Shown piece after piece: positions 1,335-24,600 of a DNA stretch of 25,456 nucleotides (positions are counted from its first letter, which is position 1; the number at the start of each line of letters is the position of its first letter). Both the position numbers and the translations under genes were made by a program. The notes under the pieces were generated by a model. That model saw only the letters and a program-made list of their open reading frames with translations, searched no databases and was not told the origin of the DNA. Source of the stretch: an uncultured Thiothrix sp. (lineage in GTDB: Bacteria; Pseudomonadota; Gammaproteobacteria; Thiotrichales; Thiotrichaceae); NCBI GenBank assembly GCA_964506085.1, contig CAZDMX010000001.1, positions 1-25,456 of the forward strand, in the 5' to 3' direction.

Positions 1335-1835
1335 ATTAGAATACTGGGAATCGACCCAGGTTCTCGGTTCACTGGTTTTGCCCTGATTGATAGTGACGGG
1401 CAACACAGTCGTCATATACATAGCGGTTGTATCAAGCTGGGTAATAAAAGTTTCCCTGAGCGATTGGGACTCATTTATACAGAACTTGCGGCATTAATTC
1501 GGGATTACTCACCCACCCAAATGGCCATCGAAAATGTCTTTGTTTCTAAAAACCCATCATCGGCTTTGAAGTTGGGACAAGCCAGAGGTGCAGCGATCTG
1601 CGCAGGTGTAGTACAAGAGCTTTCAGTAGCAGAATACAGCCCCAGAGAAGTGAAACAAGCCATAGTAGGCAAGGGCAGTGCGGATAAATCACAAGTACAA
1701 CACATGACTAAGATACTGTTGAATATCCATACCGATTTACAAGAAGATCAGGCAGATGCTTTGGGTATTGCGCTATGTCATGCACACACTTCGGCTTTTT
1801 ATAACAAGATAAAACAATCAGCACAGGGATTTTAA
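1335..1835 (+). CDS. ruvC: Holliday junction resolvase RuvC (probable ATT start)
   Basis: The frame of the listed 1464..1835 ORF extends upstream without stops to (I)RILGIDPGSRFTGF, which contains the first catalytic Asp. Also AIENVF, ALKLGQARG and DQADALGIALCH. No in-frame ATG/GTG/TTG between the TGA at 1281-1283 and 1335. AAGGA at 1322-1326 lies 8 nt before ATT at 1335. Confidence 0.93.
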   Translation: MRILGIDPGSRFTGFALIDSDGQHSRHIHSGCIKLGNKSFPERLGLIYTELAALIRDYSPTQMAIENVFVSKNPSSALKLGQARGAAICAGVVQELSVAEYSPREVKQAIVGKGSADKSQVQHMTKILLNIHTDLQEDQADALGIALCHAHTSAFYNKIKQSAQGF

Positions 1836-5311: not shown

Positions 5312-5312
5312 T

Positions 5313-6767
5313 ATGAGCTTTTTTACAGATCCTTATGCAAGATTTTTCCAACCTCTTACAGGAAAATATAGAGAGCAGATTCTTGTCTGTTTAAAAGCAC
5401 TTTATGCTGCAAGTTTTAGTCTGCATTCAACTTATACTCAGTTTCTTGAGAAAGAACAGGTTATTGAAATATTTCAGGAAATCATCACACGAGCACCTGT
5501 ATTGACTGATGATGAAGATGATCATAAAGAACCACCACGAAATGATCGCGAGCAAGCTTTGTGGGTTTTCAATCAATTGATTCAACACGGCTGGCTTGAA
5601 CAACGCATTGATGAAACTATTTTACAAAGCACCTATACCTTTAGTCGCATGGGCAGAATATTTACTGTGGCTATGGTTGAAGTGGCAGGGGCAAGCTTTC
5701 GTACTCGTCATCGTAATACACGCAATACCCGTAATGCCTTATCCTCATTTCTGGAGCACGGTGAGGTCTACGACTTATTGGATGCTTATGAGTATTCAGA
5801 GAGAATAGTGACCGACTTTACGGATGTTATTGATGAACTGGAAGAAAATAAGCGCCTGATTGTTAGTGACGCAGAGACTTCTGAACTGCTTAAACAGAAA
5901 ACAGAGACTTTTGTGGAGTTTATGGAAAAACGTTTTATCCCTGATATTTCCATACGTTTGTCAGCAGATAGTGTAGAGAAATACCGTGATGAAATTCAAC
6001 ATTTAATTGCTACTGCAAAAGCAAAAGGTAATAACTTTAAGACTGAAAAAGAAAGAGAGTTGAGAACTCTGGCAAGTGAATTGCTTAGTAAAGAAGAAAG
6101 AAACAAAAATGTATCTTTATACTTCAAGCTTCTTGATAGTATTGATCAGCGCATCTCAAATGCCAGTAAGTATATGTTGCCTAAGTTGCATCACTCATTA
6201 CGCAGTTTTACTCAGCGTGTTGAAATTATCATTAGCCAGTTAAGCTTTATACATAGTGGTCATCAAAGCCGTCTGCTGGAAATATGTCAGGCTCTGTCAG
6301 TACTGCCAGAAGATGAGCAAACATCTCGACTTGAAAAGGTAGGTGAATTATTAGCACCTGTTAATCTGCGACTTGCCGATTCCAGTGATTTGAAGATTAA
6401 TGAAAAACGGCTAAAACGTAGTGTGAATGCCCAGTTGACTCAAGAAGAATCACTCACTGAAGAGCAACAAAAACAGCTTTATATCCAAAATCTGTTAGAC
6501 GAATCTTTTACCTATCATGGAAAAGAACTGCGTGATTATATTATCAAGGCACTCATGAAAGGGCATCGCATTCGTACGACTCACTTACCAGTAAAAGATG
6601 CCAAAGAGCTGATCATGTTTACTCATGTCATTGAGGTAGGATCAGCCGGAAAACAGGATTCTGGTTATCAATTTCAGGTTGAGGCAACAGGTAATCGTGT
6701 GCCACATGAGTATTTTACTGAAATGGATGAATTTATCATCTCTTTAAAAAAGGAGCCGGACAGATGA
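5313..6767 (+). CDS. jetA: Wadjet JetA (kleisin-like subunit; DUF5716-like)
   Basis: First gene of a four-gene SMC operon. N-terminus FFQPLTGKYREQ, motifs WVFNQLIQHGWL and RTRHRNTRNT. Start placed at ATG 5313, 1 nt after the Fic stop, rather than the listed 5253. Confidence 0.82.
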   Translation: MSFFTDPYARFFQPLTGKYREQILVCLKALYAASFSLHSTYTQFLEKEQVIEIFQEIITRAPVLTDDEDDHKEPPRNDREQALWVFNQLIQHGWLEQRIDETILQSTYTFSRMGRIFTVAMVEVAGASFRTRHRNTRNTRNALSSFLEHGEVYDLLDAYEYSERIVTDFTDVIDELEENKRLIVSDAETSELLKQKTETFVEFMEKRFIPDISIRLSADSVEKYRDEIQHLIATAKAKGNNFKTEKERELRTLASELLSKEERNKNVSLYFKLLDSIDQRISNASKYMLPKLHHSLRSFTQRVEIIISQLSFIHSGHQSRLLEICQALSVLPEDEQTSRLEKVGELLAPVNLRLADSSDLKINEKRLKRSVNAQLTQEESLTEEQQKQLYIQNLLDESFTYHGKELRDYIIKALMKGHRIRTTHLPVKDAKELIMFTHVIEVGSAGKQDSGYQFQVEATGNRVPHEYFTEMDEFIISLKKEPDR

Positions 6768-7420
6768 TCACAGAATATTTGGAACGTGCCTTAAAAGCCT
6801 ATGATCTGAAATTGGAAGACTTTAGCGAGTTAATTAATCGTTTATTGAATTACGGTGTTTTGAGTCGTCAACAAAACCAAAAAGAACAAATGCTTTATGA
6901 CCGCTATCTGCGGATTTCATCACTTATTAATGACTACTTGTCAGTGATGAATGTTATCGTTTTTCATGATGAAAAATTTGAATACTTACGGCTTTATCCA
7001 CCCGGAAGCGCAGTGCCAGGTTTAGAAGTGCAGGACAGTTATACTGGCGGTTTACGAGTTAAGCTAAAACAGTCAGAAATTGTATTAGTGCTAATACTTC
7101 GCATTCAATACGACAAAGGGATTCGTGAAGGACGTGTGAGTATTGATGATCAGGGATATGTGACTGAGAAACTGGAATCCATTTCCATAGCCATGAAAGA
7201 AATACTGAATAGAAAACTACCCGACAACCTCACAGAGCGACGTGAGTTATTTAGTAAGCTACGGCAACTTCGCCTGATTGATTACAACAAGGACACTATT
7301 GATCAGCTACAAGAAGCATGGATAAAGATTTCCCCCATGATTGCCAGTTTTGTCAATGATGATGCATTGGCAGTGTTGGAAAATAGTCAGACAATTCGAG
7401 AGGATGGAGATGCTACTTAA
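6764..7420 (+). CDS. jetB: Wadjet JetB (KITE subunit; DUF4194-like)
   Basis: 218 aa, ATGA overlap with jetA, segments RLLNYGVL, LVLILRIQYD and LRQLRLI typical of tandem winged-helix JetB. Lies between jetA and the SMC ATPase. Confidence 0.83.
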   Translation: MITEYLERALKAYDLKLEDFSELINRLLNYGVLSRQQNQKEQMLYDRYLRISSLINDYLSVMNVIVFHDEKFEYLRLYPPGSAVPGLEVQDSYTGGLRVKLKQSEIVLVLILRIQYDKGIREGRVSIDDQGYVTEKLESISIAMKEILNRKLPDNLTERRELFSKLRQLRLIDYNKDTIDQLQEAWIKISPMIASFVNDDALAVLENSQTIREDGDAT

Positions 7421-10400
7421 GCGCTTGATATTATTGAATTGGGGTAACTTACCCAATCGATCTTATGAATTTGGCTCGGTAAACCTGTTTTCTGGAGGAA
7501 GTGGTTCAGGAAAAACCACAATGGGCGATGCAATACAAACCCTGATGACAGCAGCCTACGATACCTTATACCAATATAACCCAGGGCAAAATGAAAGTAG
7601 GCAACGCAGTAAAAGTGGTAAGCAGTCGCGTTCACTAGCCTCTTATGTGCTGGGCTGTGATGATGGAAGTTATGCGCGACTTGATCCAACGGATGGTTAT
7701 ATTGTAGGAGTATTTTACCCTTCTTCAGAAAATGAAACAGCGCCTCCCTTTACCGCCTTGATGGGCATTCGTGCTTATATTGATCAGACCGTAAATATAA
7801 AAACAGCCCGACAAGATTCTTTGCTGTTTATGATTTTGCCAGCAACAGAGCTAGAAAAAGATGATCTGGTTATTACGCAAGACAGTACTGAATTAATAGT
7901 GACACTGGATCAATTAGAAGCGCACTTTATCAGGAAGTTTGGTAAGCAAAGGTTTGAAGTCTACGACAAAAAAACAGCTTACTTACGTCGTTTGTATGCA
8001 GCTTTTAGGGGGCTGAAAGAGAACGTGGCGGAGCAAGAAGCAATGGCAGCCGCACGCGCTTTTTCCCGTTTTATGGCCTACAAATCGGTAAAAAATATTG
8101 ACCATTTTGTGTCAACAGAAGTGCTGGAGGAAAGAAACCTTGGTGAGGTTATTCAGGATATTTCCCAACAGTTGCGCTCTATACATGGGATGGAGAGTGA
8201 AGCTAAGCAACTAAAGCGTTCGATTACATTGCTAAAACAAGCAGACAATTTTTCCCAAAACTATATCGAATCATGGCTGGAACTGAATACATTGGACTAT
8301 ATGCTGGCGCAATACGATTATTATCAGTTACAACAGCAGTGGCTAACAACTCGAAAAGCTTTTGATAAAAAAAGATCAGATTTAAAGACAGTCGAAAAGA
8401 ATACTAAAACTACTCAGGAGCAACAGCTAGGGCTACATAAGGAACAGGTTAGCCTTGAAGCAAAACGACAAGGTATTCCGGCCTTACAGCAAAAGGATGA
8501 TCTAGAAAAAGAGAAGGATAGTTTAAAAGAGGCGGTTGTTTCAAAGTTTCAGGAATCAGGTGGGCAAAATATACAGCTTGCAACAAACAATGGTAACAGT
8601 GAATTTATCTGTAATCAGTTAGCCAATATTAGTCATGAGGATGATCTTGCAGGCTTTAATAACCTTGAGTTAACGACCTTTTGTCAACAATTTAAGGATG
8701 AAGGACTAGCAGAGAAGATTAATCTTAAGCTATTTATGGATACTGCTATCCTTGAAGATGCTGACAAGCTGGATAAATTGATACAACAAACGAAGTTTAA
8801 ACAGTCTCTTAATAATAACGGGTACGCCTATTGGCATCAGCAAAAAACGGCGAAAAAACAGACCCGTTTTGAGCAATTGGCTGGGATTACACGTAAGCAA
8901 GTTCGGTATTATCAACAGTTAGAAGAGAAGAAAATAGATTTAAACCATAAGATTAGGCGCTTAGAAAGCAATAAAAAGATTTATCCTGCCTATGTTGTCG
9001 AAGCTGTTAATGCTATTCGTAGTCGATATCCTGAAGCTGAGCCAGGCATCCTTTGTGATTATATTGAGGTTGCAAGTATTAAGCTTGATTGGCAATCCGC
9101 TATCGAAGGTTATCTGGGAGGTGCACGGTTTTCAATTATTGTTGATGAGGATTATGAAGCAGATGCTATTCGTCTTGTAAAATCCTTGTATAAAAACAAA
9201 GCTAAAGTTGTTCAGGGAAAACGGGCAAGGCTTGATGTAGAACGTAGCCATCAACAACTGGATCAACGTTCCATTATCCATATTCTGGAGTATGACCATG
9301 AAATTGCGAGATATTACCTGACAGCCAGCTACGGCACAGTCTTACGGGTAAATAATGCCGAAGAACTGAGTCTGGCGCGACGTGCTATTACCAAAGATGG
9401 TATGGGAGCAAGTAGTTATAGTATGTGGGCTCGTTCTCTGCCAGATGAAAAACTGGTGTTTGGAGAGAATGCTCGCTTAAGGGCTTTGGAAGCATTTAAA
9501 AAGGAACTATCCAATCTGGAACAAGAATTGAATCAGGCTAATGACGATATGATAGCCATTCAACACTTTCATGATGCCGTTGAAGCACTATCATCCATTA
9601 AGATTGTTGAGATAATAGAAGAAATGCTACCCCTTCATCAGCAATTAAAAATATTAGAACGAAAAATTGAACAATTGGATTTAGGTGAAGGCAAGAAACT
9701 GGATGAAAAGATAGAAGCACTAGCAAAAGATAAAGAGAATATTGATAGTATGCTTGGCGATTTACAAAAACAAAAAGGGAAGCTGGAAGAGCAAATAGAA
9801 AAACTGACCACAACAAGTAATAAACTCAGTGACCAAAAAGAAAGCTCTCAAAAAATCGTTGAATCCTGTGAGCAGAAGATTGTACAAATTGCTGAGGTGT
9901 GGTCCGATTTTGAGTTTGTAGCACATCTTGAATATGCTGATCAGGAAGCAAAAGCTCTTAATAAAGCTGCAAAGGAAGATGAAAAAAGAGAAGTTAATAA
10001 TTCATTGCAAAAGCATGAGCGTGACCTAGCTAAAAAACTGGATGAATATAATCAGGAATGTAAAGCAGGCGATGGTATCTTTTTCCAAGGTTATGAAGGT
10101 CAGCTTGATAACGCTTTATTCGAGCGTGTTTGTGCCAGACAAACAGATATTAAACGTATTCATAATCAATTGAAGAACAATGTACTGATTAAAATGGATC
10201 AGCAGCTAGGAAGAATTAGGGCTAGTTTTGACAATGCCTTTATTACGAACTTTTGTCATACCATTCATAGTGCCTTAAATACGGGTAAACAACAGATTGA
10301 ACAGCTCAATAAGGAACTTGAAAACCATTATTTTGGTGCTGATAATGAACAATTTCGTTTTGATTCAAAATGGGTTCCAGAATATAAGGGCTATGCTAAA

Positions 10401-11066
10401 TTCTTCCGTGAAGTTGTAAAAAACCCACGATTAGGTGAAAGATCGGGATTGTTCGATGACGAAGCAGACTTTTCAGAAGACGTATTACCTATCCGTGATG
10501 AAATTAAATCCATGCTTTTAGATAACGACAGCGACAAAGCACAACTGGAGTTAAAAAGGATTTCTGATTATCGTAACTACCGACAGTATGAAATATATAA
10601 AGAAGTTGAAGGAAAACAATCGATTCCATTAAGTAAATATGGAACAGGAAGTGGTGGACAACTAGAAACCCCTGCTTATATTATTCGCTCAGCATCTATC
10701 ACGTCATCTTTTCGTTTTGCCACAGGCTCGAATCATTTGAGCATGGTATTAGTTGATGAGGCTTTTTCTTTTATGGATGAACCTCGTTCCAAAGAGATTA
10801 TCAACTACTTGACAGATTCATTAGGCCTACAATTAATCTTTATCATGCCAAGTAATAAAAGTGGCCCCTTTATGGATAAGGTTAATAACCAGTTTGTTTT
10901 TGTGAAATTTCCAAGCCCCAATCTACGTGGAGAATTAAAAACCCAAGTTCAGGTTGATGCCAAGGTTTTGAAAAAAGAAAAAGTAGCGAAGCTTTGGGAG
11001 CTACATAAAGAAATGACCTATCAGCAAGGTGAATTGAGCTTTATGAATAGCTTTCAGGAGTCTTAA
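7410..11066 (+). CDS. jetC: Wadjet JetC (SMC-like ATPase)
   Basis: MLLKRLILLNWG start with GAGGA SD, Walker A GGSGSGKTT, long coiled-coil arms around a central hinge-like region, signature GTGSGGQLE, Walker B LVDEAF. Confidence 0.9.
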   Translation: MLLKRLILLNWGNLPNRSYEFGSVNLFSGGSGSGKTTMGDAIQTLMTAAYDTLYQYNPGQNESRQRSKSGKQSRSLASYVLGCDDGSYARLDPTDGYIVGVFYPSSENETAPPFTALMGIRAYIDQTVNIKTARQDSLLFMILPATELEKDDLVITQDSTELIVTLDQLEAHFIRKFGKQRFEVYDKKTAYLRRLYAAFRGLKENVAEQEAMAAARAFSRFMAYKSVKNIDHFVSTEVLEERNLGEVIQDISQQLRSIHGMESEAKQLKRSITLLKQADNFSQNYIESWLELNTLDYMLAQYDYYQLQQQWLTTRKAFDKKRSDLKTVEKNTKTTQEQQLGLHKEQVSLEAKRQGIPALQQKDDLEKEKDSLKEAVVSKFQESGGQNIQLATNNGNSEFICNQLANISHEDDLAGFNNLELTTFCQQFKDEGLAEKINLKLFMDTAILEDADKLDKLIQQTKFKQSLNNNGYAYWHQQKTAKKQTRFEQLAGITRKQVRYYQQLEEKKIDLNHKIRRLESNKKIYPAYVVEAVNAIRSRYPEAEPGILCDYIEVASIKLDWQSAIEGYLGGARFSIIVDEDYEADAIRLVKSLYKNKAKVVQGKRARLDVERSHQQLDQRSIIHILEYDHEIARYYLTASYGTVLRVNNAEELSLARRAITKDGMGASSYSMWARSLPDEKLVFGENARLRALEAFKKELSNLEQELNQANDDMIAIQHFHDAVEALSSIKIVEIIEEMLPLHQQLKILERKIEQLDLGEGKKLDEKIEALAKDKENIDSMLGDLQKQKGKLEEQIEKLTTTSNKLSDQKESSQKIVESCEQKIVQIAEVWSDFEFVAHLEYADQEAKALNKAAKEDEKREVNNSLQKHERDLAKKLDEYNQECKAGDGIFFQGYEGQLDNALFERVCARQTDIKRIHNQLKNNVLIKMDQQLGRIRASFDNAFITNFCHTIHSALNTGKQQIEQLNKELENHYFGADNEQFRFDSKWVPEYKGYAKFFREVVKNPRLGERSGLFDDEADFSEDVLPIRDEIKSMLLDNDSDKAQLELKRISDYRNYRQYEIYKEVEGKQSIPLSKYGTGSGGQLETPAYIIRSASITSSFRFATGSNHLSMVLVDEAFSFMDEPRSKEIINYLTDSLGLQLIFIMPSNKSGPFMDKVNNQFVFVKFPSPNLRGELKTQVQVDAKVLKKEKVAKLWELHKEMTYQQGELSFMNSFQES

Positions 11067-11068
11067 TT

Positions 11069-12205
11069 ATGACTCTTGTAAAAAAACCAAGATGGCTTGA
11101 GGATTACCCTGAAATTGAGAGCTGTTTACAGGGATTTATCAATAAGCTTGAGATACAGCCTGCAAAAGAAAGAACACGAAAAAAAATACCTTACGCCATT
11201 AACCGTAAAAACTTTCCTTCTTTGTGGCAACAAACAACCGAATCGGATTATCAATGGCAATTAATTCGTGATTTGGAAAGTGATTATGGTATCTGCGAAA
11301 TTAGATTCAATAAAAAAAGAAACCCTTTAGACCCTGAGTTCCATAATGCCAGTATTCAAATATTTTGTGATGCTGAAAAGACAATCAGAAACTGGCTTAA
11401 CCGACCTTACGAAGAACCCTTATTGAAGCAGTGGAAAGAAGTAGTAAAACAACAAGAGTCACTATTTCCAGGAACTATCGAACGGCTTCAATCGCGTATT
11501 TTCAATATTCAAGGAAAGAGTACTAAAGAAGTGGTTAGAGCCTTTATTGTTTTGGGTGAGTACCTAGAAAAGTTCCTTACATTGCGCCAACTAAGTGCCA
11601 GATGTTTTTGGGGTATGTCCAAAATTCTGGATAATCAGGAAGATTTGGTACTCTCGCTTTATCCCGGAATGAATATAAAACCACGACCTTTAATCATTAG
11701 TTTGCATATTCCTGACAATGCAACAGCCTGCTTGTTTATCGAAAATCATGATACCTATGTGAATGCTTTGCAGGGAGATATCCCTATTACCAAACATCAG
11801 GTTTTGGTTTACTGCTCTGGTTTTCTAGGAAGTGCCAACAGGATACGTACTTCGGGTTCGGTTGTTTTTCACTGGTCATCAGGGTCAACTTCCAGTAAGA
11901 AACAATCCTTCGAAAACTGGTGGTTGCATCAATCAGGTTCAAATCTACCTGTGTTCTTTTGGGGTGACTTGGATTACTCAGGCATGGCAATTCTTGCCGC
12001 GTTAAAAAAGGTATTCCCTGAAATAAAAGCCTGGCAACCTGGGTATACAAAAATGTTAGAGGCTCTTGATGAGAAAATGGCTCATGAAGTGGATGTTTCA
12101 GGAAAAAATAACCAAGAGGATCCTGTAACAACAGGGTGTGATTATGCGGATAAAATATTACTGCCAACATTAAGATTGTTATTTGTTGATCAGGAGGTCG
12201 TATAG
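11069..12205 (+). CDS. jetD: Wadjet JetD (TOPRIM nuclease; DUF2220-like C-terminus)
   Basis: TOPRIM motifs FIENHDTY and FWGDLDYSGMAIL, C-terminal FVDQEVV. Starts 2 nt after the jetC stop. Confidence 0.88.
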   Translation: MTLVKKPRWLEDYPEIESCLQGFINKLEIQPAKERTRKKIPYAINRKNFPSLWQQTTESDYQWQLIRDLESDYGICEIRFNKKRNPLDPEFHNASIQIFCDAEKTIRNWLNRPYEEPLLKQWKEVVKQQESLFPGTIERLQSRIFNIQGKSTKEVVRAFIVLGEYLEKFLTLRQLSARCFWGMSKILDNQEDLVLSLYPGMNIKPRPLIISLHIPDNATACLFIENHDTYVNALQGDIPITKHQVLVYCSGFLGSANRIRTSGSVVFHWSSGSTSSKKQSFENWWLHQSGSNLPVFFWGDLDYSGMAILAALKKVFPEIKAWQPGYTKMLEALDEKMAHEVDVSGKNNQEDPVTTGCDYADKILLPTLRLLFVDQEVV

Positions 12206-12224
12206 ATTCTGGTGGATAAATCAG

Positions 12225-12427
12225 CTACTCCAACAATAGCAGCCCATCTTTTTTATATTGCTTAAATGCGCCATCTCCAGAAATTAGCATTGTTTCGCTA
12301 CAAATGGCATGCCAGATTAACAACCTATCGAAGGGGTCTTTATGTTTTGATTGGGAGAAGATGACAGGATATGTTTAATGATGTCTGAGAGTTTAGCTTT
12401 AAACGCTGACATTTGAATGTTTTTCAT
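12225..12427 (-). pseudogene. Collapsed Phd/YefM antitoxin + PIN/VapC toxin remnant
   Basis: Hand translation of the minus strand. After a GGAGAAAGG SD, ATG 12427 gives MKNIQMSAFKAKLSDIIK (Phd-like start). In a different frame, 12344-12225 gives HKDPFDRLLIWHAICSETMLISGDGAFKQYKKDGLLLLE* (VapC-type C-terminus). The middle of the operon is missing. Confidence 0.78.
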
Positions 12428-12466
12428 TGCCTTTCTCCATGCGCTTATTGAAACCTAGCAAGAACT

Positions 12467-12479
12467 TGACCAGTTGTCA
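12467..12479. promoter_or_regulatory. Palindromic operator candidate upstream of the phd remnant
   Basis: TGAC-CAGTT-GTCA about 40 nt upstream of the phd ATG. TA operons are typically autoregulated through such palindromes. Confidence 0.4.
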
Positions 12480-12711
12480 TCTAGTATTAGGGTCTAGTTC
12501 CGTCCTATTCTCTAAAGAGAGCGCTTGATTGAAGTATATTGAAACTGAAGTCCCAATTTTCGATATACACACGACATCCCTTTCGTTATATTAAATTTCT
12601 CATTGTAATTGATAAATATTCCTGACTACCCATATGTTTAAGCCATTGTACGAACAACATTTTTCTTGAAGTGTCGAAAGATTTGCACAGACTAGTCTAT
12701 GCCTCCTGAGC

Positions 12712-12738
12712 ACAAAGGAATCGCAGTTTAAGCTGCGA
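12712..12738 (-). terminator. Possible intrinsic terminator of the RiPP operon
   Basis: On the minus strand, TCGCAG-cttaaa-CTGCGA followed by TTCCTTTG, about 45 nt past the bufC stop. The U-tract is weak. Confidence 0.4.
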
Positions 12739-12781
12739 ATAATGAGGGTGTGCTTAGACATATGCTTGGGTGAGGTTATAT

Positions 12782-13549
12782 TCAAAAGCCACATATCATC
12801 AGTTCATTTAGCCATGTCTGCAAGTAAGAAACAGCTTGTGCCGGCGTTTGTTCTTCATCGAAGTAATCGAGTAGACCTTCACACAATTCACTAAAATTAT
12901 CCCCTTGAATGGCGCGTGTTAATGCATAAGTTTCAGCATCGTCTAGTGCGCGATATCGACTAATAAGATCTTTTCGCCAAATAATCCATGTTGTGTTGTC
13001 TTGTTCTAAGGTGGGTGGGTTGTTTTCTCCCGTTAAGGCTTTCCATATAGCGAAGCTGTTATGTGTGCAGGGCAATACCTGCACAGAATCATGGAACTTT
13101 AATTGTAATGTTGGCCATGACTCTACCGCTATTTTACTTAAATCTTCAGTACTAAGCGTGGTGCAGTCAGCGGCATCAAAGCTATGGTTAAAGGCTTGTT
13201 CAATCTTTGCAATTTCTACTATTTCCGGATAATCAGCAAAGGGCTTTTGCGTTGAGAGTAACTCGACTAGATATTGGCTGTAATAACGCAAGCTAGGATG
13301 TTGCGATGGGTATTGATTGATATAGCTATCCATGAGCTGATCAAACAAATCATCCCCAAGATAACCATGCAGGCAATCAAAATCTGTCGTAATGGCTTCT
13401 TTCAAGCGTAGGCGATAGCCAATCGCGTAGATATCTAGTCGCCGCTGGGCTGTTGCATCGGGTGTTGATTGAATGCGCTTTGCTACTTCAGAAGGCTCAC
13501 CCTGTAAATGCTTCATAAAGGACTGCTGCAATTCACGTAGCTGTGTCAT
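12782..13549 (-). CDS. bufC: HvfC/BufC-family MNIO partner protein (DUF2063-type)
   Basis: LRELQQSFM start, RLDIYAIGYRLRL, PSQHPSLRYY, EIAKIEQAF, YLQTWLNEL. 17-nt overlap with the DUF692 gene. Confidence 0.85.
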   Translation of the reverse strand: MTQLRELQQSFMKHLQGEPSEVAKRIQSTPDATAQRRLDIYAIGYRLRLKEAITTDFDCLHGYLGDDLFDQLMDSYINQYPSQHPSLRYYSQYLVELLSTQKPFADYPEIVEIAKIEQAFNHSFDAADCTTLSTEDLSKIAVESWPTLQLKFHDSVQVLPCTHNSFAIWKALTGENNPPTLEQDNTTWIIWRKDLISRYRALDDAETYALTRAIQGDNFSELCEGLLDYFDEEQTPAQAVSYLQTWLNELMICGF

Positions 13550-14423
13550 TAGGCGACTCCTTCGGTACGCGCATACGTGGCTGGGTAAGTGCTAGCGCTT
13601 CGGCTGGCAACGTGTTGAAGGCGATTGTTTCGGCTGTTTTAAGTTCATTATGTAACTCGGTGAATTCAGGAATATTGTCATCCCTTTCGATCATGGTACT
13701 AACAGCGCCAAAATGTTGCAGTGCTTTGGCGTATAAATCCCAAACAGGATCACAGACATCATGATCGTGGGTATCAATGATCATTGAACCATTGTAACTG
13801 TGTCCCGCGAGATGAAATTGCATAACGCGATCAATGTCTATGCCTTTTATATAGTCGATAGGCTCGAAGTGATGGTTATGTGCACTGACAAAAATGTTAT
13901 TAATATCTAGCAATATCCAGCAATCTGCGCGACGGGCGATCTCATTGAGGAACTCCCATTCAGATATTTCTGATTCGTTATAGGTTACATAACTGGATAG
14001 GTTTTCAATTAAGAGTTGTCTGCCTAGGTAATCTTGTACTTGCCGGATACGTGCAGCAACATGCTCGATGGTAGTTTCGTTGTAGGGTAACGGCAACAGG
14101 TCGTGACTATTGACTTGATCCACGCTCGTCCAGCACAGATGATCGGATATCCAGTGCGGTTCTACACGTGTTGCGAGTTGTTTTAATTGTTTAAGATAGG
14201 TTTTATTGAGTGGATCAGTACTGCCGATGGAGAGTGAAACACCGTGCATAACCATTGGATAGTCGGCACGAATTTTATCTAGATTATCTAAAGGCTTACC
14301 ACCTGGCACCATGTAGTTTTCACTGAGAATTTCAAACCAGTCAATATCCGGTTTATTATCTAACACATATTGATAGTGTTCTGTACGCAGACCCAAGCCA
14401 AATCCGAGAAAAGGACGTGTCAT
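13533..14423 (-). CDS. bufB: DUF692 multinuclear non-heme iron oxidase (MNIO; BufB/HvfB-like)
   Basis: GFGLGLR, WFEILSENY, HGVSLSIGS, WISDHLCW, LIENLSSY, LLDINN, FHLAGH, IDTHD, IERDD. The metal-ligand motifs appear intact. Confidence 0.94.
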   Translation of the reverse strand: MTRPFLGFGLGLRTEHYQYVLDNKPDIDWFEILSENYMVPGGKPLDNLDKIRADYPMVMHGVSLSIGSTDPLNKTYLKQLKQLATRVEPHWISDHLCWTSVDQVNSHDLLPLPYNETTIEHVAARIRQVQDYLGRQLLIENLSSYVTYNESEISEWEFLNEIARRADCWILLDINNIFVSAHNHHFEPIDYIKGIDIDRVMQFHLAGHSYNGSMIIDTHDHDVCDPVWDLYAKALQHFGAVSTMIERDDNIPEFTELHNELKTAETIAFNTLPAEALALTQPRMRVPKESPNDTAT

Positions 14424-14489
14424 ATTGTTTCCTGAAAGTTGTTGTTTTAATAATGTGTTACCGTCCAGAAAAATCTTATAAATTTAACA

Positions 14490-14663
14490 GTAGGTCGGAT
14501 AAGCGATATAGATACATGGATGTAGTAGGGAAAAGCAGGAGCAATTGCCGAGCGCCACCCGACAAAGGTATGTTAATTCAGGCGCTTGCCGGATGGCGTT
14601 CCTCGGCTTTAGCTTCCTGCGTCGCCCTACCTTCTGCATCCATGCAGTCGTTATCCGGCCTAC
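14490..14663. repeat. Inverted GTAG-REP doublet (REPIN-like), each REP interrupted by a ~42-48 bp insert
   Basis: Left arm GTAGGTCGGATAAGCG...CGCCACCCGAC (14490-14563). Right arm, reverse complement, GTAGGCCGGATAACG...CGCCATCCGGC (14663-14588). These resemble the enterobacterial REP (GTAGGCCGGATAAGGCG...ATCCGGC). Confidence 0.75.
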
Positions 14664-14723
14664 AAACACATCCTTTTTGGATGGTAACTAATTTGTTATG
14701 AGATATTAGGTGTTAGTTAGATA

Positions 14724-14755
14724 ATCCTCAACAAGTATATTCACTCGTTGAGGAT
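14724..14755 (-). other. 13-bp RNA stem-loop between precursor and enzyme genes
   Basis: Minus-strand AUCCUCAACGAGU-GAAUAU-ACUUGUUGAGGAU. The single mismatch is a G-U wobble only on the sense (minus) strand. Confidence 0.55.
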
Positions 14756-14839
14756 AAGCGGTATCTTTAGGTTTTAGAGGACAAGGAAACGATAGTCCTT
14801 AGTGAACACTAGGTTCATTAAAGAAACAGCTGATAAAGA

Positions 14840-15106
14840 CTAACCACCTTCCTTCGTTTTTCCACCAATATGATCACATGATGCAGCGGGCATGGATACG
14901 AAACCGTGACCCTTACATTTTGCATGTCCCTTACAAGCATTCTCTGCTGTTTTACAATCATTGTGGCCTTTACACTTGTTGACGTCATAGCAATGTACAA
15001 TGTTTTGAGTGCCTTCTGCAGTTGCTGTCGTTGACAACGCTGTCATGCCCGCAGCGGATATAGCCAATGCCGCGCCGAGGCTCATTGCTTTTTTTGAAAT
15101 AGTCAT
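14840..15106 (-). CDS. bufA: Bufferin BufA2-type precursor peptide, Sec/SPase I signal
   Basis: Signal peptide ending A-T-A|E (residue 30/31). Core [32 protein letters not shown]...C..IGG with 6 Cys. Upstream of DUF692; AGGA SD. Confidence 0.85.
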
Positions 15107-15229
15107 AATTTAAATCCTGTTGTTTTTAATACCTGAATGGGTGTGAATTTAGGGAAAGATATAGTATTAACTCAAATATTGAGTGTCACTAGACCTACCC
15201 ATTAATGTGATAAAAAGGTGTAGAGGAAC

Positions 15230-15496
15230 TTACTTAACGGTTCCACCTACGTCCCCACAGGCTTTTGCAGACATTTTAACAAAACCATGTCCTTTACATT
15301 TAGCATGTCCTTTACAAGCATTCTCTGCTGTTTTGCAATCGTTATGCCCTTTACATTTATTGACACCGTAACAATATGCGGAATGTTTTTCTGCGGTTGC
15401 AGTATTCCCCGATGATGATGTTCCACTACATGCTGCAAGTGTAGTCGCTGCTGCAAGGGCTAAAGCGATACCTGTGGATGTTTTGATTAAACTCAT
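15230..15496 (-). CDS. bufA: Bufferin BufA2-type precursor peptide, lipoprotein signal
   Basis: Lipobox LAAC (Cys23), Ser/Gly/Thr linker, core [32 protein letters not shown]...C..VGG. AGGAG SD. Confidence 0.85.
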
Positions 15497-15687
15497 TTCT
15501 TATCTCCTGATGATTAATAGTTTGCACAACCCACGATGATTAGTGAGTTGTCTGCGGATGACACTGATTTGACGGATAAGAATTGATTTTGGATGTAAAT
15601 GTGAGAAATAAATTTAAAATTTTTTTTAAAATGGAATGATTCTCGGCTTGATGGTTTTCGCAATAGCTCCGACTACAGGCTATTTTT

Positions 15688-16227
15688 TCATTTTTTACAG
15701 AGCCAATCATTGAATGCGTTCATCTCAATTTCATCCGTTATGGTTAGCAGGAGATGGGGTAGTCTTGGAGTATTTTGTTGCTGGGGATGGCTTCCATCGT
15801 AGTCGAAGATCAATTGATTCAACAGGTAACGGAATTCGTTAATATGTTGACTGATTTGATCCAGGTATTTTCCTGTAGCGTGCTCAATTAAGTAACGGCC
15901 TTCCATTAAACCCGCTTGGTGAGCACAGCTTTTAGTGATTTCTGTGTGTAAATGAATCAACTCTTCAATGGTTGTTTCTAGAGTATTGAGTGGGATTTTA
16001 TAGTCTTTGTCTTGATCTACTGTGTCATGCAGGGTTAATGATTCTTGATGGAGAGCAGCGATAATTGTTTTTGCCTGCTCTTGCCAGTGACTAAAAATTT
16101 GTTTGTTTTCAATGAGAATAGTGCAGTCAGACTTTGCGGTTAAGTATCTTGAATAATCAATATCTACTTGAAGACATTTGAAGTGCTCAAGGATGGTTTG
16201 ATAAGTTGATATTTTCCTTGAATCCAT
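15688..16227 (-). CDS. Hypothetical protein (~179 aa, predicted helical)
   Basis: Long open frame. ATG 16227 (MDSRKIS) has an AAGGG SD; the listed start at 16275 is the alternative. No family recognised. Confidence 0.6.
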   Translation of the reverse strand: MDSRKISTYQTILEHFKCLQVDIDYSRYLTAKSDCTILIENKQIFSHWQEQAKTIIAALHQESLTLHDTVDQDKDYKIPLNTLETTIEELIHLHTEITKSCAHQAGLMEGRYLIEHATGKYLDQISQHINEFRYLLNQLIFDYDGSHPQQQNTPRLPHLLLTITDEIEMNAFNDWLCKK

Positions 16228-16284
16228 AGCATAGCCCTTATGTTTGCCTGACTGTTCAACCTTTTTTAAAATCATAATGATTAA

Positions 16285-16461
16285 ACCTAAAAAACGCAGT
16301 TGAAACTACTGTGAATGCCTATAGCACTGAATCTAAAGGTTTTCTTGAAAATGTTGACTTCACCCGTAGAGTGACTACGAATAAAGCCAACATTTTCCAG
16401 AAATTCCTTTATCTTCAGCACTCTAGTCATTCTCGCTACGTTTCAACTGAGTTTTTTAGGT
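16285..16461. mobile_element. ~177-bp palindromic MITE-like element, copy 1
   Basis: Terminal inverted repeats ACCTAAAAAAC(G/T)CAGTTGAAAC. The whole element is an imperfect hairpin (~85-bp arms, AGTGA loop). TAA on both flanks (16282-16284 and 16462-16464). A second copy is present at 25352. Confidence 0.78.
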
Positions 16462-16612
16462 TAAATGAGCTAAAAGTTATAAGTATCAAGTATAAGATAA
16501 TTATAGTCTATGAGTATGGTCATATCCTGACCAGGCTAAGGAATTAATTTGTTATTCCTATACAAACGACCTAGTATCAGTTCATTTTAAATATCAATAA
16601 GCAGACTTAGTT

Positions 16613-19441
16613 GTGGATAAAATTAGCCTACGCGGTGCACGCACGCATAACCTAAAAAATATAGATATAGATTTGCCTCGTGATCAGTTGATTGTTATCA
16701 CGGGTTTATCCGGTTCGGGGAAATCATCATTAGCCTTTGATACCATTTTTGCAGAAGGTCAACGGCGTTATGTTGAGTCTTTGTCTGCTTATGCTCGGCA
16801 GTTTTTGTCGATGATGGAAAAGCCCGACCTTGATCATATTGAAGGTTTGTCTCCTGCTATTTCGATTGAGCAAAAAACTACTTCTCATAATCCACGATCT
16901 ACAGTCGGTACGATCACAGAAATCCATGACTATTTACGTCTGTTGTTTGCCAGAGCAGGTGTGCCGAAATGCCCTGAGCATGGAGGTGTGCTTGAGGCAC
17001 AAACAGTCAGTCAAATGGTCGATGCGGTGTTGGAATTTCCCGAAGGCAGCAAAATCATGTTGCTTGCTCCGGTGGTGAGAAACCGCAAAGGCGAGCATGT
17101 ACAGTTGTTTGAAGAACTACGTAGTGAAGGCTATCTGCGGGTGCGGATAGATGGCACCGTCTATGAGATCGATGATGTTCCCAAGTTAGAGTTACGCAAA
17201 AAGCATACGGTTGAGGTGGTTGTAGACCGGATCAAGGTTCGTGATGATTTGCAGTTACGATTATCAGAGTCTTTTGAAACGACGTTACGCTTGTCGGATG
17301 GCTTGGCTAGAGTTGCCTGGATGGATGAGGAAGGACGAGAAGAGCTGTTGTTCTCGGCCAATTTCGCGTGTTCTGAATGCGGCTATTCATTGTCAGAATT
17401 AGAGCCGCGATTATTCTCGTTTAATAGCCCTAACGGAGCATGTGATACGTGTGATGGTTTGGGAGTGCACCAATATTTCGATACTGATCGAGTGGTCTCT
17501 AAACCCAAGTTAAGCATAGCGGCCGGTGCGATACGTGGATGGGATAAGCGAAATCATTACTATCATCAGTTAATTACATCATTGGCTGATCATTATGGTT
17601 TCGATATAGATACACCCTATGAAAAACTGCCCAAAAAGATACAGAAAATATTGCTTTATGGCAGTGGAAGAACCGCTATAGAGTTTACCTATATCGGCCA
17701 AAAAGGACAGATGTACCAGCGTAAACATGCCTTTGAAGGTGTGGTAAATAACATGCAACGCCGCTATCGGGAAACAGAATCTAGTTCAGTTCGCGAGGAG
17801 CTTAATAAATATATGTCCTCTGAGGTTTGTCCAGATTGTGAGGGTGCGCGTTTAGGTGAGCCAGCACGGCATGTGTTTATTGGTGATACTAATTTGCCGA
17901 CTATCACCGATCTGCCTATTGGTGAGTCGTTTAGCTTTTTTGATAAGCTGGATTTACCTGGAAATCAGGGAAAAATTGCTGAAAAAATTGTTCGTGAAAT
18001 TTGTTTGCGACTGGAGTTTCTGGTCAATGTTGGACTGGATTATCTAACCTTGAGCCGTAGCTCGGAGACTTTGTCTGGGGGCGAGGCGCAACGTATTCGT
18101 CTGGCTTCGCAGATTGGAGCGGGGCTGGTTGGGGTAATGTATGTGCTGGATGAGCCTTCTATAGGTCTGCATCAACGAGATAATGCGCGGTTACTAAAAA
18201 CATTGGTACATTTGCGTGATTTGGGCAATACGGTCATTGTTGTTGAACACGATGAGGAGGCGATTCGACAAGCAGATCATGTTGTTGATATCGGACCAGG
18301 TGCAGGAGCGCATGGTGGGGAGATAGTCGCACAAGGCACGCCTGAAGAGGTTGAAAACACGGCGGCCTCATGCACTGGACAGTTCTTATCAGGCAAACGG
18401 AAAATTGAAATACCTAAAAAACGAACACCCGTTGATAAGAAGCGCATGTTGAAAATTAAAGGGGCGACAGGAAATAACCTGAACAGTATTAATGTCGAAA
18501 TTCCTATTGGGTTATTTACTTGTGTGACGGGTGTTTCCGGTTCTGGGAAATCGACTTTAATTAATAATACGCTGTATCCGAGTATTGCACGCTATCTTAA
18601 TAACAGCTCGTTGGAAGCTGCTCCTGTTAAAAAAATCGAAGGCTTAGAGCATTTCGATAAAATCGTAGATATTAATCAAAGCCCTATAGGTAGAACACCA
18701 CGCTCAAATCCTGCAACTTATACGGGAGTATTTACGCCGATTCGTGAGTTATTTGCAGCTACCCATGAAGCTAGGTCACGCGGTTACACTCCCGGACGTT
18801 TTAGCTTTAACGTCAAAGGTGGTCGCTGTGAAGCTTGCCGAGGTGATGGCTTAATCAAAGTGGCAATGCATTTTTTACCTGATGTTTATGTGCCTTGTGA
18901 TGTTTGTGATAGTAAGCGTTATAACCGCGAGACATTAAACGTCCATTATAAAGGTAAAAATATTAACGAAGTGTTGCAGATGACCGTTGAAGAAGCCCAT
19001 GAATTCTTCAAACCAGTCCCTAGTATTTTCGCTAAATTGGATACTTTAATGGATGTTGGACTTTCATACATAACATTAGGGCAAAATGCGACTACACTTT
19101 CAGGAGGTGAGGCGCAACGGGTCAAGTTAGCCAAGGAGTTGTCTAAGCGCAGCACGGGTAAAACGCTATACATTCTGGATGAGCCCACTACGGGTCTTCA
19201 TTTTCACGATGTTGAACAGCTACTTACCGTGTTACATAGGTTGCGAGATGGTGGTAATACCATTATCGTTATCGAACATAATCTGGATGTGATTAAAACC
19301 GCAGATTGGATTGTTGATCTTGGGCCAGAAGGCGGTAGTCGTGGTGGTAATATCATAGCGACAGGATCACCTGAGACGATTGCGAAAAACAAGGAGTCCT
19401 TTACAGGGCAGTATTTAAAAACTTTATTAGAACAAGGATAG
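16613..19441 (+). CDS. uvrA: Excinuclease ABC subunit UvrA
   Basis: GTG start, [10 protein letters not shown], two ABC ATPase modules ([22 protein letters not shown] and [27 protein letters not shown]), zinc-binding CxxC motifs, 942 aa. Confidence 0.99.
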
Positions 19442-20224: not shown

Positions 20225-21595
20225 TCAGCTTAAATTTGACGTATTATACAAATATCCCTTACGAGGGATATTGGTAACTAGATTTTTAATATTTGCATGG
20301 GTCAATTTGCCGGTTAGCCGTTGTAATGCTGACCGAATAGAGGGGCCAGAGTTAGGTTTTAATATTTCAATTAATTCATTAACAGTCACTATGCTTCCTT
20401 CATTTTTTTCTAAATAGACAATAATTTCCCACTCTGTTGGGGACAGCGTGACGACTTTACTGGATTGATTTGGAATATGGTAAATAATGTCCCCGGCATA
20501 GCTGTCAGGTGTTTTTGGTTGAAGTGTAATCTTGGGGTGGCCATGAGACGTTTCTTTTTTTGATACAAGTGGTAATTGGTCACTTTCATTCAACATGGAT
20601 AATCTATCTACCGTCACCTCTCGAATAATCTTACAGACAAAACCGATTTTCTCATTTTTCTTATTTAGAATTCCAGCCTGACGTAAAACTCTGATGCCAT
20701 TGACGTGATGTGGCGGGTCTCCTTGAATGACTTCTTTCAGTGTGGTTCGGTAAACCTCAATGGGTAAAATTGACTCGGCCCAATCCAGCTCGGTGAATAT
20801 GCGGGGGCTACAATTTTCTATTATCGTTGGAATCAGTGCTGAAAAAACGGTGTCGATATACTTTGCGTATTCATTAGTAGCCACTTCTGTTCCTTCGCTT
20901 AATAGCTTGCGGATGAAGGTATTGATAGTACGATGTAAAAGAATGGGATGGCCACCTGATATCTGTAGGATATGTTGGCCTATAGAGAGTTTCTCCTTGT
21001 TGAGTATTTTCAACGCTTGCACTTTATCAGGTTTTGTTGCTATAGAGCGTGCGTGGTAATCCAGAACAGACTGGATTATTATGGGTATTTTATTCTCCCA
21101 TAACCCATCCCAGGGCGACAACCACAAGCTTGCAAAGGATGATAGCCCCAGTGAACCTATCATGGTTGTATTTAAGCGTGTTGGGTTTTTTGTGTGGAAT
21201 GATTCATTCAGGCCGGGTAATTCACTTCCTAAAAAATGCGCGCGTGTGGGAGTGCATGAAGTGGCAATAACAATCCGTTCGTCAGCACTGTTCAAGTTTC
21301 TAAATTCAATCTCTAGTTTACTATCATAGATATGATCAAGGTTGTCGATTAGTAGTATTCCCTTATTGTCTTCTGCACGACACCATTGAATAATTTCTTT
21401 GATGTCTTCTTGTTTGTTTCTGATGGAGCCTTTAATAAACAAGGTTTTCACACCATCTCTATTAAGTGCTTCTAACAGCTTTTCAATAAAGACAGATTTT
21501 CCCATGCCAGGACCGGCCTGAATGATTGTTTTCTCAGGTAGTGCTATTAAATCATTTAAGCGGTGTTGATATAAAAATGGAAATGAATCATTCAT
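20225..21595 (-). CDS. STAND-like P-loop NTPase with C-terminal OmpR/Trans_reg_C-type winged helix
   Basis: Walker A AGPGMGKS, Walker B LLIDNLD, GxP helical-domain motif SGGHPILL. C-terminal LSPTEWEIIVYLEKNEGSIVTVNEL...SALQRLTGKL...LVTNIPRKGYLY matches the OmpR wHTH pattern (LTxxExxLLxxL...GxVVSREEL...IxRLRxKL...IxTVRGxGY). Confidence 0.75.
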   Translation of the reverse strand: MNDSFPFLYQHRLNDLIALPEKTIIQAGPGMGKSVFIEKLLEALNRDGVKTLFIKGSIRNKQEDIKEIIQWCRAEDNKGILLIDNLDHIYDSKLEIEFRNLNSADERIVIATSCTPTRAHFLGSELPGLNESFHTKNPTRLNTTMIGSLGLSSFASLWLSPWDGLWENKIPIIIQSVLDYHARSIATKPDKVQALKILNKEKLSIGQHILQISGGHPILLHRTINTFIRKLLSEGTEVATNEYAKYIDTVFSALIPTIIENCSPRIFTELDWAESILPIEVYRTTLKEVIQGDPPHHVNGIRVLRQAGILNKKNEKIGFVCKIIREVTVDRLSMLNESDQLPLVSKKETSHGHPKITLQPKTPDSYAGDIIYHIPNQSSKVVTLSPTEWEIIVYLEKNEGSIVTVNELIEILKPNSGPSIRSALQRLTGKLTHANIKNLVTNIPRKGYLYNTSNLS

Positions 21596-21625
21596 GCTAT
21601 AAATATCCTGGTATTTAAGTAGAGT

Positions 21626-24600
21626 CTAGATAATATGATTGTTTTGAATCCAGTCCGCTAATAAAGGAGCGGAAATTCTGATGCTATTATTCTTCTTGTT
21701 AAATCCACCCATTGCATCAAGGTCGTAAAATAAATCTTTCACATCACCAAGGGTGGCTTGTATTTTCAGGGAATCATTACTCGGATGTTTGTTGTTCAGA
21801 TATTTATTATTTATTGACTCAATAACCTCATCTACAGTTACCCAAGTTTTTGACCATTTTTTGCCTTTCATTTTCCTGCGTTCAAACAAGAGTTCCAGAA
21901 CACATTTCACATATTCGTGTAGGCCGCTCTTATCATAATAGCCTTCGGGGAAAATTCGATCAGCGAACAAGGTATCGTTTGATAATATTTCGTCACGAGC
22001 TCTTCGGGCATCAGTTTCGGTAAATTCGACCATCTCACCACTGGCTGCCTTTTGAGAGGCATATTCCCACATTTTCCGTCCTAAATGGTTTAACCAAAAT
22101 GGGTTGCCATTGGTGATTTTCCAGAGGTTATTAGTGATGTGATTGTTGACGCTGATTCGGTATTTCCAGCGTAATTGATTAACGCTCAATAGTTCCCTAG
22201 CATGGAATTGGGAAAAAGGTTTAACTTCCACAGGGTCACTGGCGCGAAGTATGTTTTTCAGGTCGACGTGTAATGAGTTGACGGGGGCTTTGGGGCCAAT
22301 CCAGATTAATAATGTGCCTGGTTTGTTATAAATCATTCCGGAAAACTGTTTAATGTTCTCAAGCTCTCGTGAGTCTCCTGCCGAATCCGCAACATGTGCT
22401 TGGCGAAAAGGGATTAAAGCCTCGTCAACAATAAGTACGGTTACGATGCGTTTCTTGTGGTTTGTAGTTTGACCAGATACTTCCAGGATTTCTTCAAGAC
22501 ACTTGCTGTTAGGATTAGGGCCTTGGAAATAATCCCGACCTTTATAGTGCTCGTTAATCTCTTTTTGTAGTCCTTCTGCTAACTTGTTCTCCACATCACT
22601 CCAATGGTCTTGTGTTTGTGCCTGATAATAAACAACAAGAGGAAGCACATTTTCATTTTGTTGCTTAAGTGTGCGCTGAAACCGATAGGCTAGACTGGTC
22701 TTTCCTGTTTTTAAGGGGCCTGAGATAAACGCTTTACCTCCAGCAAAGGTGGAGATGGCTTGGTAATCAAAAGCATGTTGAAGTTCGGCTAATTGTTCTT
22801 CACGGTTATAAAAATTCTGATCTTGCTTAACGACGCCACCACAAGTATAAGGTGCTGGAATCATTGCATTTTGCATGTTTAAATCATTGCGAGGAGGTAG
22901 TGCATTTTCCAGAATGGGAGTTTTGGGGTCGTTGGGGCCAAGAATGCGCTGAATATTGTCTAGCATTTTTAGTTTTTTATGTACGGCTATTATGCTGTCC
23001 GTAGATACAAGCCCTACTTCAATGCGTATAACACTCCAGTCTTGTCCTAAGTGTTTACCAATAACCTCCGTCACTGTAACTCCTAAATCATGTAGTGTGT
23101 TTAGGATTTGACTAAGAATGCCTTCTGCACCGTTAATTTCACCACTGATTTCAAAGAGGAAATATTGCCCCATCGTTGGACGTAATCGAGTTTCCACTAC
23201 CTCTCCACCTTCTCCGCATGATGCGTTTCTGCGGTGGAAAACAAGCGTGTTATTTTTAATTTTTATGACGCGTTCACAATGCCGATCGGGTGTACATTTT
23301 TTGCAGATAGAGATACTTAGTTTACCTTTTCGGGTTCCTTTGGTAATGAGGTCTTCTTTGGGGAAATGGATTGCAGAATTAACCCAGCCTTTTAATGAGT
23401 GGATAAAGACTCTTTCTTTGTAATCATCGATGTCAGAAGTAAAAGGGTAGCTGGTATCTTTACAATTTTCTTTTTCTTCTTTAATGCCTAGCTCATTGAG
23501 CCATCGACGTACATTAAACAAATCTACCTTGTGTGATGAGGATTGGCTCGTAAATATAATACTATTGGCTTCTGAGACGACGGCCTGTAATACCAAGTCA
23601 CGAACGTCATCAGTCATGTGGGCGTATTGAGGAATGATTTTACATAAACGATCATTTCCATTTGCAATAAAATTTTCCGCTAGGTTGATTTTTAACTTAC
23701 GACGAAGATGTCGTTTTTTTGTAGTGGTAAGGGTATCCCACCCTTGAGGTAGCAACGAATAGCTATCATTGACATGTAGCTCTACTTCATCTCCATCTGC
23801 AAGCTGATCCAAAAGTTTCAATTTCTTACTTTTATTCACAATGGCATATTCAGTTTTACCCACAAAACTGTCGTGCAAATGAGAGGAAAAATCTAAAACG
23901 GTAGAACCCAGCGGAAGATCACAAAAATTTCCTCTGGGGGTATATATTCGAATGTTCTTGTTCTTCTCAGGAGTGCGTTTTTCTTTCATGTGCTTGGCGA
24001 GCGCGCTTTTCCAAGGGTGTTGTGAGGTCTTTTCTTTAACAATAAAACGCACATGTATCCTGCTCTGTATTTTATTCTCTCTGATGTCTATGATGGTGTG
24101 GATGGCTTTGTAACCAGAAGGAGGAGGGTTGCCAATAAAATCTGTGAAATATTCATCAAGACTTAATACCGATCGGTGAGTATGTAAATGCCCCAGTAAC
24201 TGATAGCAATTTTCAATACTTTGGCAGCGTACGGTAACAAACCCGATACGCCACAAATTGACGCTAATATTATGAGGGTGAATATCACCTAGTTTGAGCT
24301 TGTTTCTCATTGAGGCAACGTGCCGCCATTTCCATTCGATACTTTTAATATCATGGTTGTTTAAGCAAGAAAGCTTCGAAGAAAAAATACTAATAATTTG
24401 CTCGAGATGTTTTTTGCTTTGCGCTTTTACCGCAGGGTCTTTACACTTTTTTATTATTTTTTGTGCGAGATCATATTCAGCCCCTATAAATGAAATATCT
24501 TGAAGCGTATTGCGCTCACACCACAAGCCGCAGTATTCGGCACAAGCTGCGACAACAAAGCGTGTGAACTCGAGCTCTTTTTTATATTCACCCGAATAAC

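Follow-up and report, generated by a model that had tools for sequence, protein, structure and literature searches.

Bufferins, which were recognised only recently, are very widespread among bacteria as a defence against copper stress. In Bufferin 2 of Caulobacter vibrioides (BufA2/BufB2/BufC2, CCNA_03001-02999; BUF_6/12Cys), a six-Cys precursor with an N-terminal Sec signal is encoded in a cluster ordered bufA-bufB(MNIO)-bufC(DUF2063), without doxX. The peptide is exported by Sec, its four central Cys carry a −4 Da modification (5-thiooxazoles), and CysI and CysVI are left unmodified and disulfide-linked (PMC11626156). Conversion of the central Cys to 5-thiooxazoles, giving a copper-binding product, is known only for Buf1 and Buf2 of C. 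vibrioides. In published work, a lipoprotein is predicted for ~16% of Buf2 precursors, some clusters have their precursor genes in tandem, a 12-Cys form consists of a duplicated 6-Cys domain, and BufBC probably recognises its substrates in part by the signal peptide (PMC12452194). Among RiPP-lipoproteins, DybA, an MNIO-modified lipobox peptide, was found experimentally to be triacylated in E. coli, and the mined members of this group include SPII bufferins (PMC13056109). We found no statement, in the main texts of the cited papers or in the supplements of PMC12452194, that tandem genes encode a lipoprotein and a soluble form. The ingredients of the arrangement described below are thus known; their pairing and fixed order appear to be undescribed.

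We analysed a 25,456-nt stretch of DNA (hereafter the window) whose host is a hydrothermal-vent Thiotrichaceae (Cocleimonas-like) bacterium. The closest genomes were Thiotrichaceae/Cocleimonas MAGs, designated L003, L001 and L002, with 95%, 85% and 84% identity to the lipobox peptide, respectively, and the locus was present in hydrothermal-vent metagenomes. A search of RNA runs found no transcript data for it. Judged from its gene content, the locus is a predicted Buf2-type bufferin operon, bufA2-L, bufA2-S, bufB, bufC, reading on the minus strand from 15496 to 12782. Its first two genes, called as 88-aa ORFs on the minus strand at 15496-15230 (bufA2-L) and 15106-14840 (bufA2-S), are separated by a 123-nt spacer (15107..15229). 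Both matched the BufA2 model NF050166 (Cu_RiPP_BufA2, cutoff 60), bufA2-S with 84.8 bits and bufA2-L with 80.5 bits, and an AGGAGA Shine-Dalgarno sequence lies 7 nt upstream of bufA2-L. The six Cys columns were invariant in 16- and 52-sequence alignments, both window peptides included.

The two precursor genes are followed by a single bufB and a single bufC, also on the minus strand, giving the gene order A-B-C. bufB (13533..14423) encodes a 296-aa MNIO (DUF692) bufferin maturase, which scored 376 bits against PF05114 and 393.7 bits against the MNIO_BufB equivalog model NF050167 (cutoff 310). bufC (12782..13549), which overlaps bufB by 17 nt, encodes a 255-aa DUF2063 partner protein (PF09836, 63.3 bits, cutoff 27.2). 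No doxX/bufD gene was found 3' of bufC and no further ORF in 12205-12782; a terminator-like site lies past bufC at 12738-12721. With both peptides above the BufA2 cutoff and one BufB and one DUF2063 BufC downstream, the assignment of both as bufferin-type precursors, made earlier in a sequence-only reading of this DNA, was borne out. The tandem region, comprising both genes and the spacer, was spanned by contigs from two independent vent-metagenome runs with 0-2 differences and is therefore not an assembly artefact.

The locus thus resembles the C. vibrioides cluster in precursor type, gene order and lack of doxX. However, the window has two precursor genes, the first with a lipoprotein signal, whereas C. 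vibrioides has one, with a plain signal. Two-domain 12-Cys Buf2 lipoproteins, as in Cognaticolwellia aestuarii (L053; the species modelled in PMC12452194), likewise have a lipobox, two bufferin domains and one BufBC, with the same tether and core motifs as in the window. In these proteins, however, the two domains are fused and both anchored, whereas in the window the second domain has a gene to itself and carries a cleavable signal of its own. DybA/chryseobasin-like RiPP-lipoproteins (PMC13056109) share with BufA2-L an MNIO-modified type of precursor, a lipoprotein signal and one extra unmodified Cys. They differ in an MNIO of the ChrH-like subfamily, macrocycle/hydantoin chemistry and unrelated precursors, and a soluble twin is undescribed there. 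In the oxazolin (HvfA-HvfBC; Buf_EGKCG) and methanobactin (MbnABC) systems, Cys-derived heterocycles made by an MNIO and a partner likewise serve as copper ligands, but the precursor families and motifs are unlike those of the window; methanobactin, a secreted chalkophore, is made with a leader peptide and leaves the cell by a dedicated export route. The enzymes are also distinguishable: BufB scored 275.8 bits against HvfB, below the cutoff of 360, and matched MbnB weakly, and BufC scored 31 bits against the HvfC NCBIfam model, under the cutoff of 142.

The two precursors differ at their N-termini. Sec signals were called on both by rule, from n/h/c regions together with a lipobox or AXA site. 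We defined a lipoprotein signal by a PROSITE PS51257-type rule: a lipobox [LVI][ASTVI][GAS]C whose Cys falls within residues 15-35, no charged residue in the h-region, and at least one K/R in the n-region. BufA2-L satisfied this rule, with K5, an uncharged h-region (A13-T18) and T-L-A-A-C23 (lipobox L20-A-A-C23; Cys codon 15428-15430, minus strand), and an S/T/G/A-rich tether of 18 residues lies between its lipobox and six-Cys core. BufA2-S, which has no Cys ahead of the core, failed the rule; its predicted cleavage site is A28-T-A30|E31 (ATA|EG; codons 15017-15025). The proposed contrast between a canonical, conserved LAA-C23 lipobox and an SPI-type ATA|EG signal therefore stands as a prediction from these motifs. 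In 139 distinct homologous N-termini, the lipobox Cys was conserved within a box [LMVA][VASIMTL][GAS]C at residues 19-32, followed by an A/S/T-rich tether of 15-24 aa up to CysI. The +2 residue in these N-termini was A, S, T or Q and never Asp; in BufA2-L it is Ser. By the E. coli +2 rule, BufA2-L would probably be sorted to the outer membrane, provided that its host sorts lipoproteins as E. coli does; the rule is not universal and fails in some Gammaproteobacteria. AlphaFold2 modelling of BufA2-L with the 52-sequence alignment gave a mean pLDDT of 52.8 and a pTM of 0.28, too poor to judge the fold or the flexibility of the tether; residues 18-38 had the lowest confidence in this generally poor model.

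Across 52 sequences, G9, A13, A16 and A17 were signal-peptide invariants common to SPI and SPII forms, and G-x-A-L-A-x-x-A-A is an invariant motif common to both precursors. The presence of these invariants in both forms fits the published role of the signal peptide in BufBC recognition (PMC12452194). In the Thiotrichaceae clade, a T/A-A-T-A-[ED] motif also lies just 5' of CysI in both paralogues (window positions 15386-15400 and 15014-15028, and the orthologues in L001-L003); in the soluble copy it is the predicted signal peptidase I site. Its last residue is D in both L002 copies. The window and L003 each have E in the two copies, and the L001 copies differ, with E in the lipobox copy and D in the soluble copy.

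The sequence-only reading had also held that the MNIO must spare the lipobox Cys. Such sparing makes no special demand on the enzyme: the C. vibrioides maturase already leaves CysI and CysVI unmodified (PMC11626156), and modification and triacylation coexist in DybA (PMC13056109). Sparing of the lipobox Cys therefore needs no new enzymology.

We then compared the mature regions. The two peptides share an identical 29-aa stretch that contains CysII-CysV, at residues 45-73 of BufA2-L (15278..15364, minus strand) and residues 42-70 of BufA2-S (14897..14983, minus strand). Thirteen of the 29 codons differ, all synonymously and none non-synonymously, so that the recount agreed exactly with the earlier hand count. 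The exact 29-mer also occurs in three unrelated metagenome proteins, and among 120 homologues the mode and median distance from the window core was 4 residues. Because the core lies this near to the family consensus, its identity in the two copies is, taken alone, weak evidence of anything special. Within a genome, the two 29-mers were at distance 0 in the window, L002 and L003, and at distances of 1-6 in the remaining pairs.

The explanation originally offered for this identity, an old duplication maintained by purifying selection, holds for the whole gene. The dN/dS was 0.11-0.22 for both genes between orthologues (L001-L003), which argues that both copies are maintained, and synonymous sites were saturated between the full-length paralogues. 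For the core, this explanation is incomplete, as four residues changed in parallel: the window/L003 lineage and L002 differ at E/G, A/S, K/S and H/Q, each changed in both paralogues. In L002, both copies carry identical unusual codons (TCC, AGT and CAA) at changed core residues. Informative sites in the window/L002 quartet numbered 21 for orthology and 6 for within-genome identity, and five of the latter six cluster in one 12-residue core tract (runs permutation p = 0.0045). Furthermore, 11 of the 13 synonymous differences in the window core lie in its flanks, with two in the central 13 codons (Fisher p = 0.008). The codon pattern thus indicates that the core is a mosaic, in which saturated flanks surround a young central tract that co-varies between paralogues across genomes. 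Whole-gene gene conversion was rejected, since outside the central tract orthologues are closer than paralogues at synonymous sites. For the central tract itself, the comparison suggests either short-tract gene conversion or co-selection (parallel selection) by the common maturase, atop the old duplication. We infer that the identical core is held by family-wide purifying selection together with homogenisation or co-selection of the central tract between the copies.

The mature domains nevertheless carry class-specific residues. Profiles of lipobox and soluble mature domains classified held-out pairs correctly in 28 of 30 cases, and the relative lipobox/soluble call was correct for 12 of 15 pairs when whole clades were left out. 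The latter success indicates that the two classes predate several clades, although the signal is modest.

We also examined the non-coding parts of the operon. The 123-nt spacer between the precursor genes showed 78% mean column identity in four Thiotrichaceae genomes and contained no convincing terminator. A sigma-70 scan gave no grounds to claim a separate promoter for bufA2-S: sites were no more numerous than in shuffled sequence, and the one minus-strand inter-gene site was unconserved in L003. Beyond bufA2-S, a hairpin/inverted repeat at 14724..14755 (minus strand, 3' of bufA2-S; arms ATCCTCAAC...GTTGAGGAT) has an 11-13-bp stem with no U-tract after it and is conserved in the window, L001, L002 and L003. 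Attenuation, stabilisation of the mRNA and service as an operator are all possible roles, and that it sets the precursor:enzyme ratio is a guess. The gap between bufA2-S and bufB is unusually long, at 416 nt, because of a window-specific palindromic insertion of ~235 bp (14457..14690, assigned to neither strand), which is absent from L001-L003. The gap folds into a long hairpin far better than its shuffles (z = −9.7). The arms of the insertion, GTAGGYCGGATAA, resemble enterobacterial REP sequences, and in four metagenome runs the insertion showed a 10-30x excess of contig depth and many loose ends, with one contig lacking it. The insertion, which is multi-copy and lies outside the conserved operon, is a dispersed REP/MITE-like repeat element. 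It separates the precursors from bufBC in no genome but this one, and it could alter co-transcription here. Against Rfam, the region 12000-16700 yielded two chance-level eukaryotic matches only (E<=1).

On the far side of bufC, the operon abuts a defence island (4145-12205, plus strand). A Fic-domain gene (4145-5311) is followed there by a complete Wadjet system, consisting of JetA (5253-6767), JetB/DUF4194 (6764-7420), the JetC SMC-like ATPase (7341-11066) and JetD (11069-12205). A 123-aa RuvC ORF with a TTG start (1464-1835, plus strand) matched only positions 45-148 of the 148-position Pfam model; this partial match suggests that the true start lies further upstream or that the frame is shifted. 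A 195-aa ORF immediately upstream of the precursors (15688-16275, minus strand) was weighed as a possible member of the cluster and dropped: it had no Pfam/NCBIfam match and, among 81 loci, was present only in the window and L003, which share 73% aa identity in it. Farther away, at 20225-25039 (minus strand), a 1137-aa protein with RelA/SpoT-like, TGS and AAA/STAND-type ATPase regions lies beside a 456-aa AAA protein with a weak C-terminal Trans_reg_C winged-helix match, an unusual pair of no clear family.

To determine how often a lipobox and a soluble precursor occur together, we took a single genome for each GTDB species, searched it with an alignment containing the two forms, and examined the 80 top-ranking loci. 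Ranking was by resemblance to the lipobox query, and the frequencies are therefore not family-wide estimates. A lipobox BufA2 followed by a plain-signal BufA2, bufB and bufC was found at 17 of these 80 loci, always in the order lipobox copy, soluble copy, one bufBC. A single two-domain 12-Cys lipoprotein was found at 36-38 loci, a lone plain-signal 6-Cys gene at 13, a plain-signal 12-Cys gene at four, and a lone lipobox 6-Cys gene at five at most. The pairs came from Thiotrichaceae, Chromatiaceae, Methylophaga, a Cycloclasticus symbiont, Ketobacter, Sedimenticola and several gammaproteobacterial MAGs. A culturable carrier of the pair is Methylophaga sp. OBS4 (L010). Four metagenome look-ups gave the same picture: the lipobox proteins P0102 and P0075 each have a plain-signal second precursor after them, and the plain-signal proteins P0083 (with the identical 29-mer) and P0107 stand alone. 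The metagenome cases checked beyond the 17 loci were L085 and L086-L088. As survey and look-ups agree, the pair is a recurrent sub-architecture and not a peculiarity of the window. SPII signals, which the sequence-only reading had suggested surveying along with paired forms, proved frequent among the 120 best homologues, where 39 of 50 single-domain and 44 of 70 two-domain proteins passed the lipoprotein rule. Little is thereby left of the novelty first attached to the pair, since SPII Buf2 precursors and tandem precursors are published (PMC12452194, PMC13056109) and the pair itself recurs in the survey.

Two variants were seen among the pairs. In some, the plain-signal precursor is 110-112 aa long with 10 Cys (L013:4297-4635, L038:4339-4674, L085:2802-3134), and a C-K-G-x-N-D-C-K unit is repeated extra times, expanding the modified core. 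One MAG (SRR5242447_bin.13) carries two separate lipobox-plus-soluble pair loci, L005 and L007, each with its own bufBC.

Taken together, we consider it probable, by analogy with the described systems, that one BufBC matures both precursors and that an anchored BufA2-L and a free periplasmic BufA2-S buffer copper. In the cytoplasm, BufB-BufC would recognise both precursors through the signal-peptide motif and the core, and would oxidise CysII-V of each to 5-thiooxazoles, as expected from homology to C. vibrioides Buf2, leaving CysI, CysVI and the lipobox Cys untouched. Both precursors would then be exported by Sec. Cys23 of BufA2-L would be diacylglycerylated, followed by signal peptidase II cleavage and N-acylation (Lgt/LspA/Lnt), and the product would hang from the membrane on its 18-residue tether, from the outer membrane if sorting of the +2 Ser is E. 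coli-like. Signal peptidase I would cleave BufA2-S at ATA|EG, leaving it free in the periplasm. After formation of the CysI-CysVI disulfide, the tethered and free products would buffer periplasmic copper; copper as the metal is extrapolated from Caulobacter. The recurrence of the order lipobox, plain, bufB, bufC across marine Gammaproteobacteria was counted in favour of this explanation as a whole.

The survey also bears on how the two products might work together. Two bufferin domains were present at 55 of 60 lipobox-first loci (17 split, 36-38 fused) versus 4 of 17 plain-signal loci (Fisher p = 8e-8, uncorrected for phylogeny). This link between lipobox and two-domain architecture suggests that the two products may cooperate rather than serve separate pools. 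A tentative reading, which we hold possible, is that lipid-anchored Buf2 forms are obligate two-domain units, either fused or completed by a soluble twin that joins in the periplasm. With a single BufBC obliged to mature the two copies, gene conversion over short tracts or co-selection would then preserve the identity of the thiooxazole-bearing central tract. If true, this would account for the saturated flanks around a young, co-varying centre.

The same association could mean that the pair is a split two-domain lipoprotein. By gene-fusion ('Rosetta stone') logic, BufA2-S would dock on the anchored BufA2-L as the unfused equivalent of a 12-Cys form, so that the pair would function as one anchored metallophore of two domains and BufA2-S would be no free chelator. 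The invariable gene order and the within-genome co-variation of the two cores agree with this, as does the finding that plain-signal genes with the same core, such as those of P0083 and P0107, can stand alone, whereas single-domain lipobox genes nearly always have a second precursor after them. However, BufA2-S retains a complete signal peptide and ribosome-binding site of its own, and the sample is biased to relatives of the lipobox query. Orthology of the fused domains to the separate copies, domain 1 to the lipobox copy and domain 2 to the soluble copy, showed as a weak trend only: 28 of 40 agreed with it, and the fused 12-Cys domains were mixed in the V versus I/L signature that precedes the GG motif. 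We regard a split lipoprotein as unlikely.

It is highly improbable that the extra Cys escapes lipidation, with both peptides cut by signal peptidase I (the first at LAA|C) and Cys23 acting as an extra thiol ligand or disulfide partner. Signal peptidase I, too, would accept the small −1 residue (Ala22). However, in all 139 N-termini the Cys sits in a canonical [LVIM][ASTG][GAS]C lipobox at residues 19-32 and is followed by a low-complexity tether of constrained length; the same logic was validated experimentally for DybA (PMC13056109), and published SignalP-based surveys class this subset of precursors as lipoproteins (PMC12452194, PMC13056109). That the genes are redundant duplicates, the second adding only precursor dosage and the difference in signal type being non-adaptive, would suit the identical core, the single maturase and the tandem precursors of other bufferin clusters (PMC12452194), but is scarcely credible given that the SPII/SPI split and the order are retained in at least five clades at saturated synonymous divergence, that the mature domains remain recognisable by class even with whole clades left out, and that both signal types are under purifying selection.

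Maturation of both precursors by one BufBC, yielding an anchored and a free chelator, thus remains our preferred explanation. The locus adds nothing categorically new, as lipoprotein Buf2 precursors and tandem genes have both been published, but the comparative survey yields two regularities. The first is the fixed order of lipobox copy then soluble copy, together with the near-obligate two-domain nature of anchored systems. The second is the co-variation of the modified core between copies that use one maturase. Both bear on substrate recognition by BufBC and on cooperation between anchored and free bufferins.
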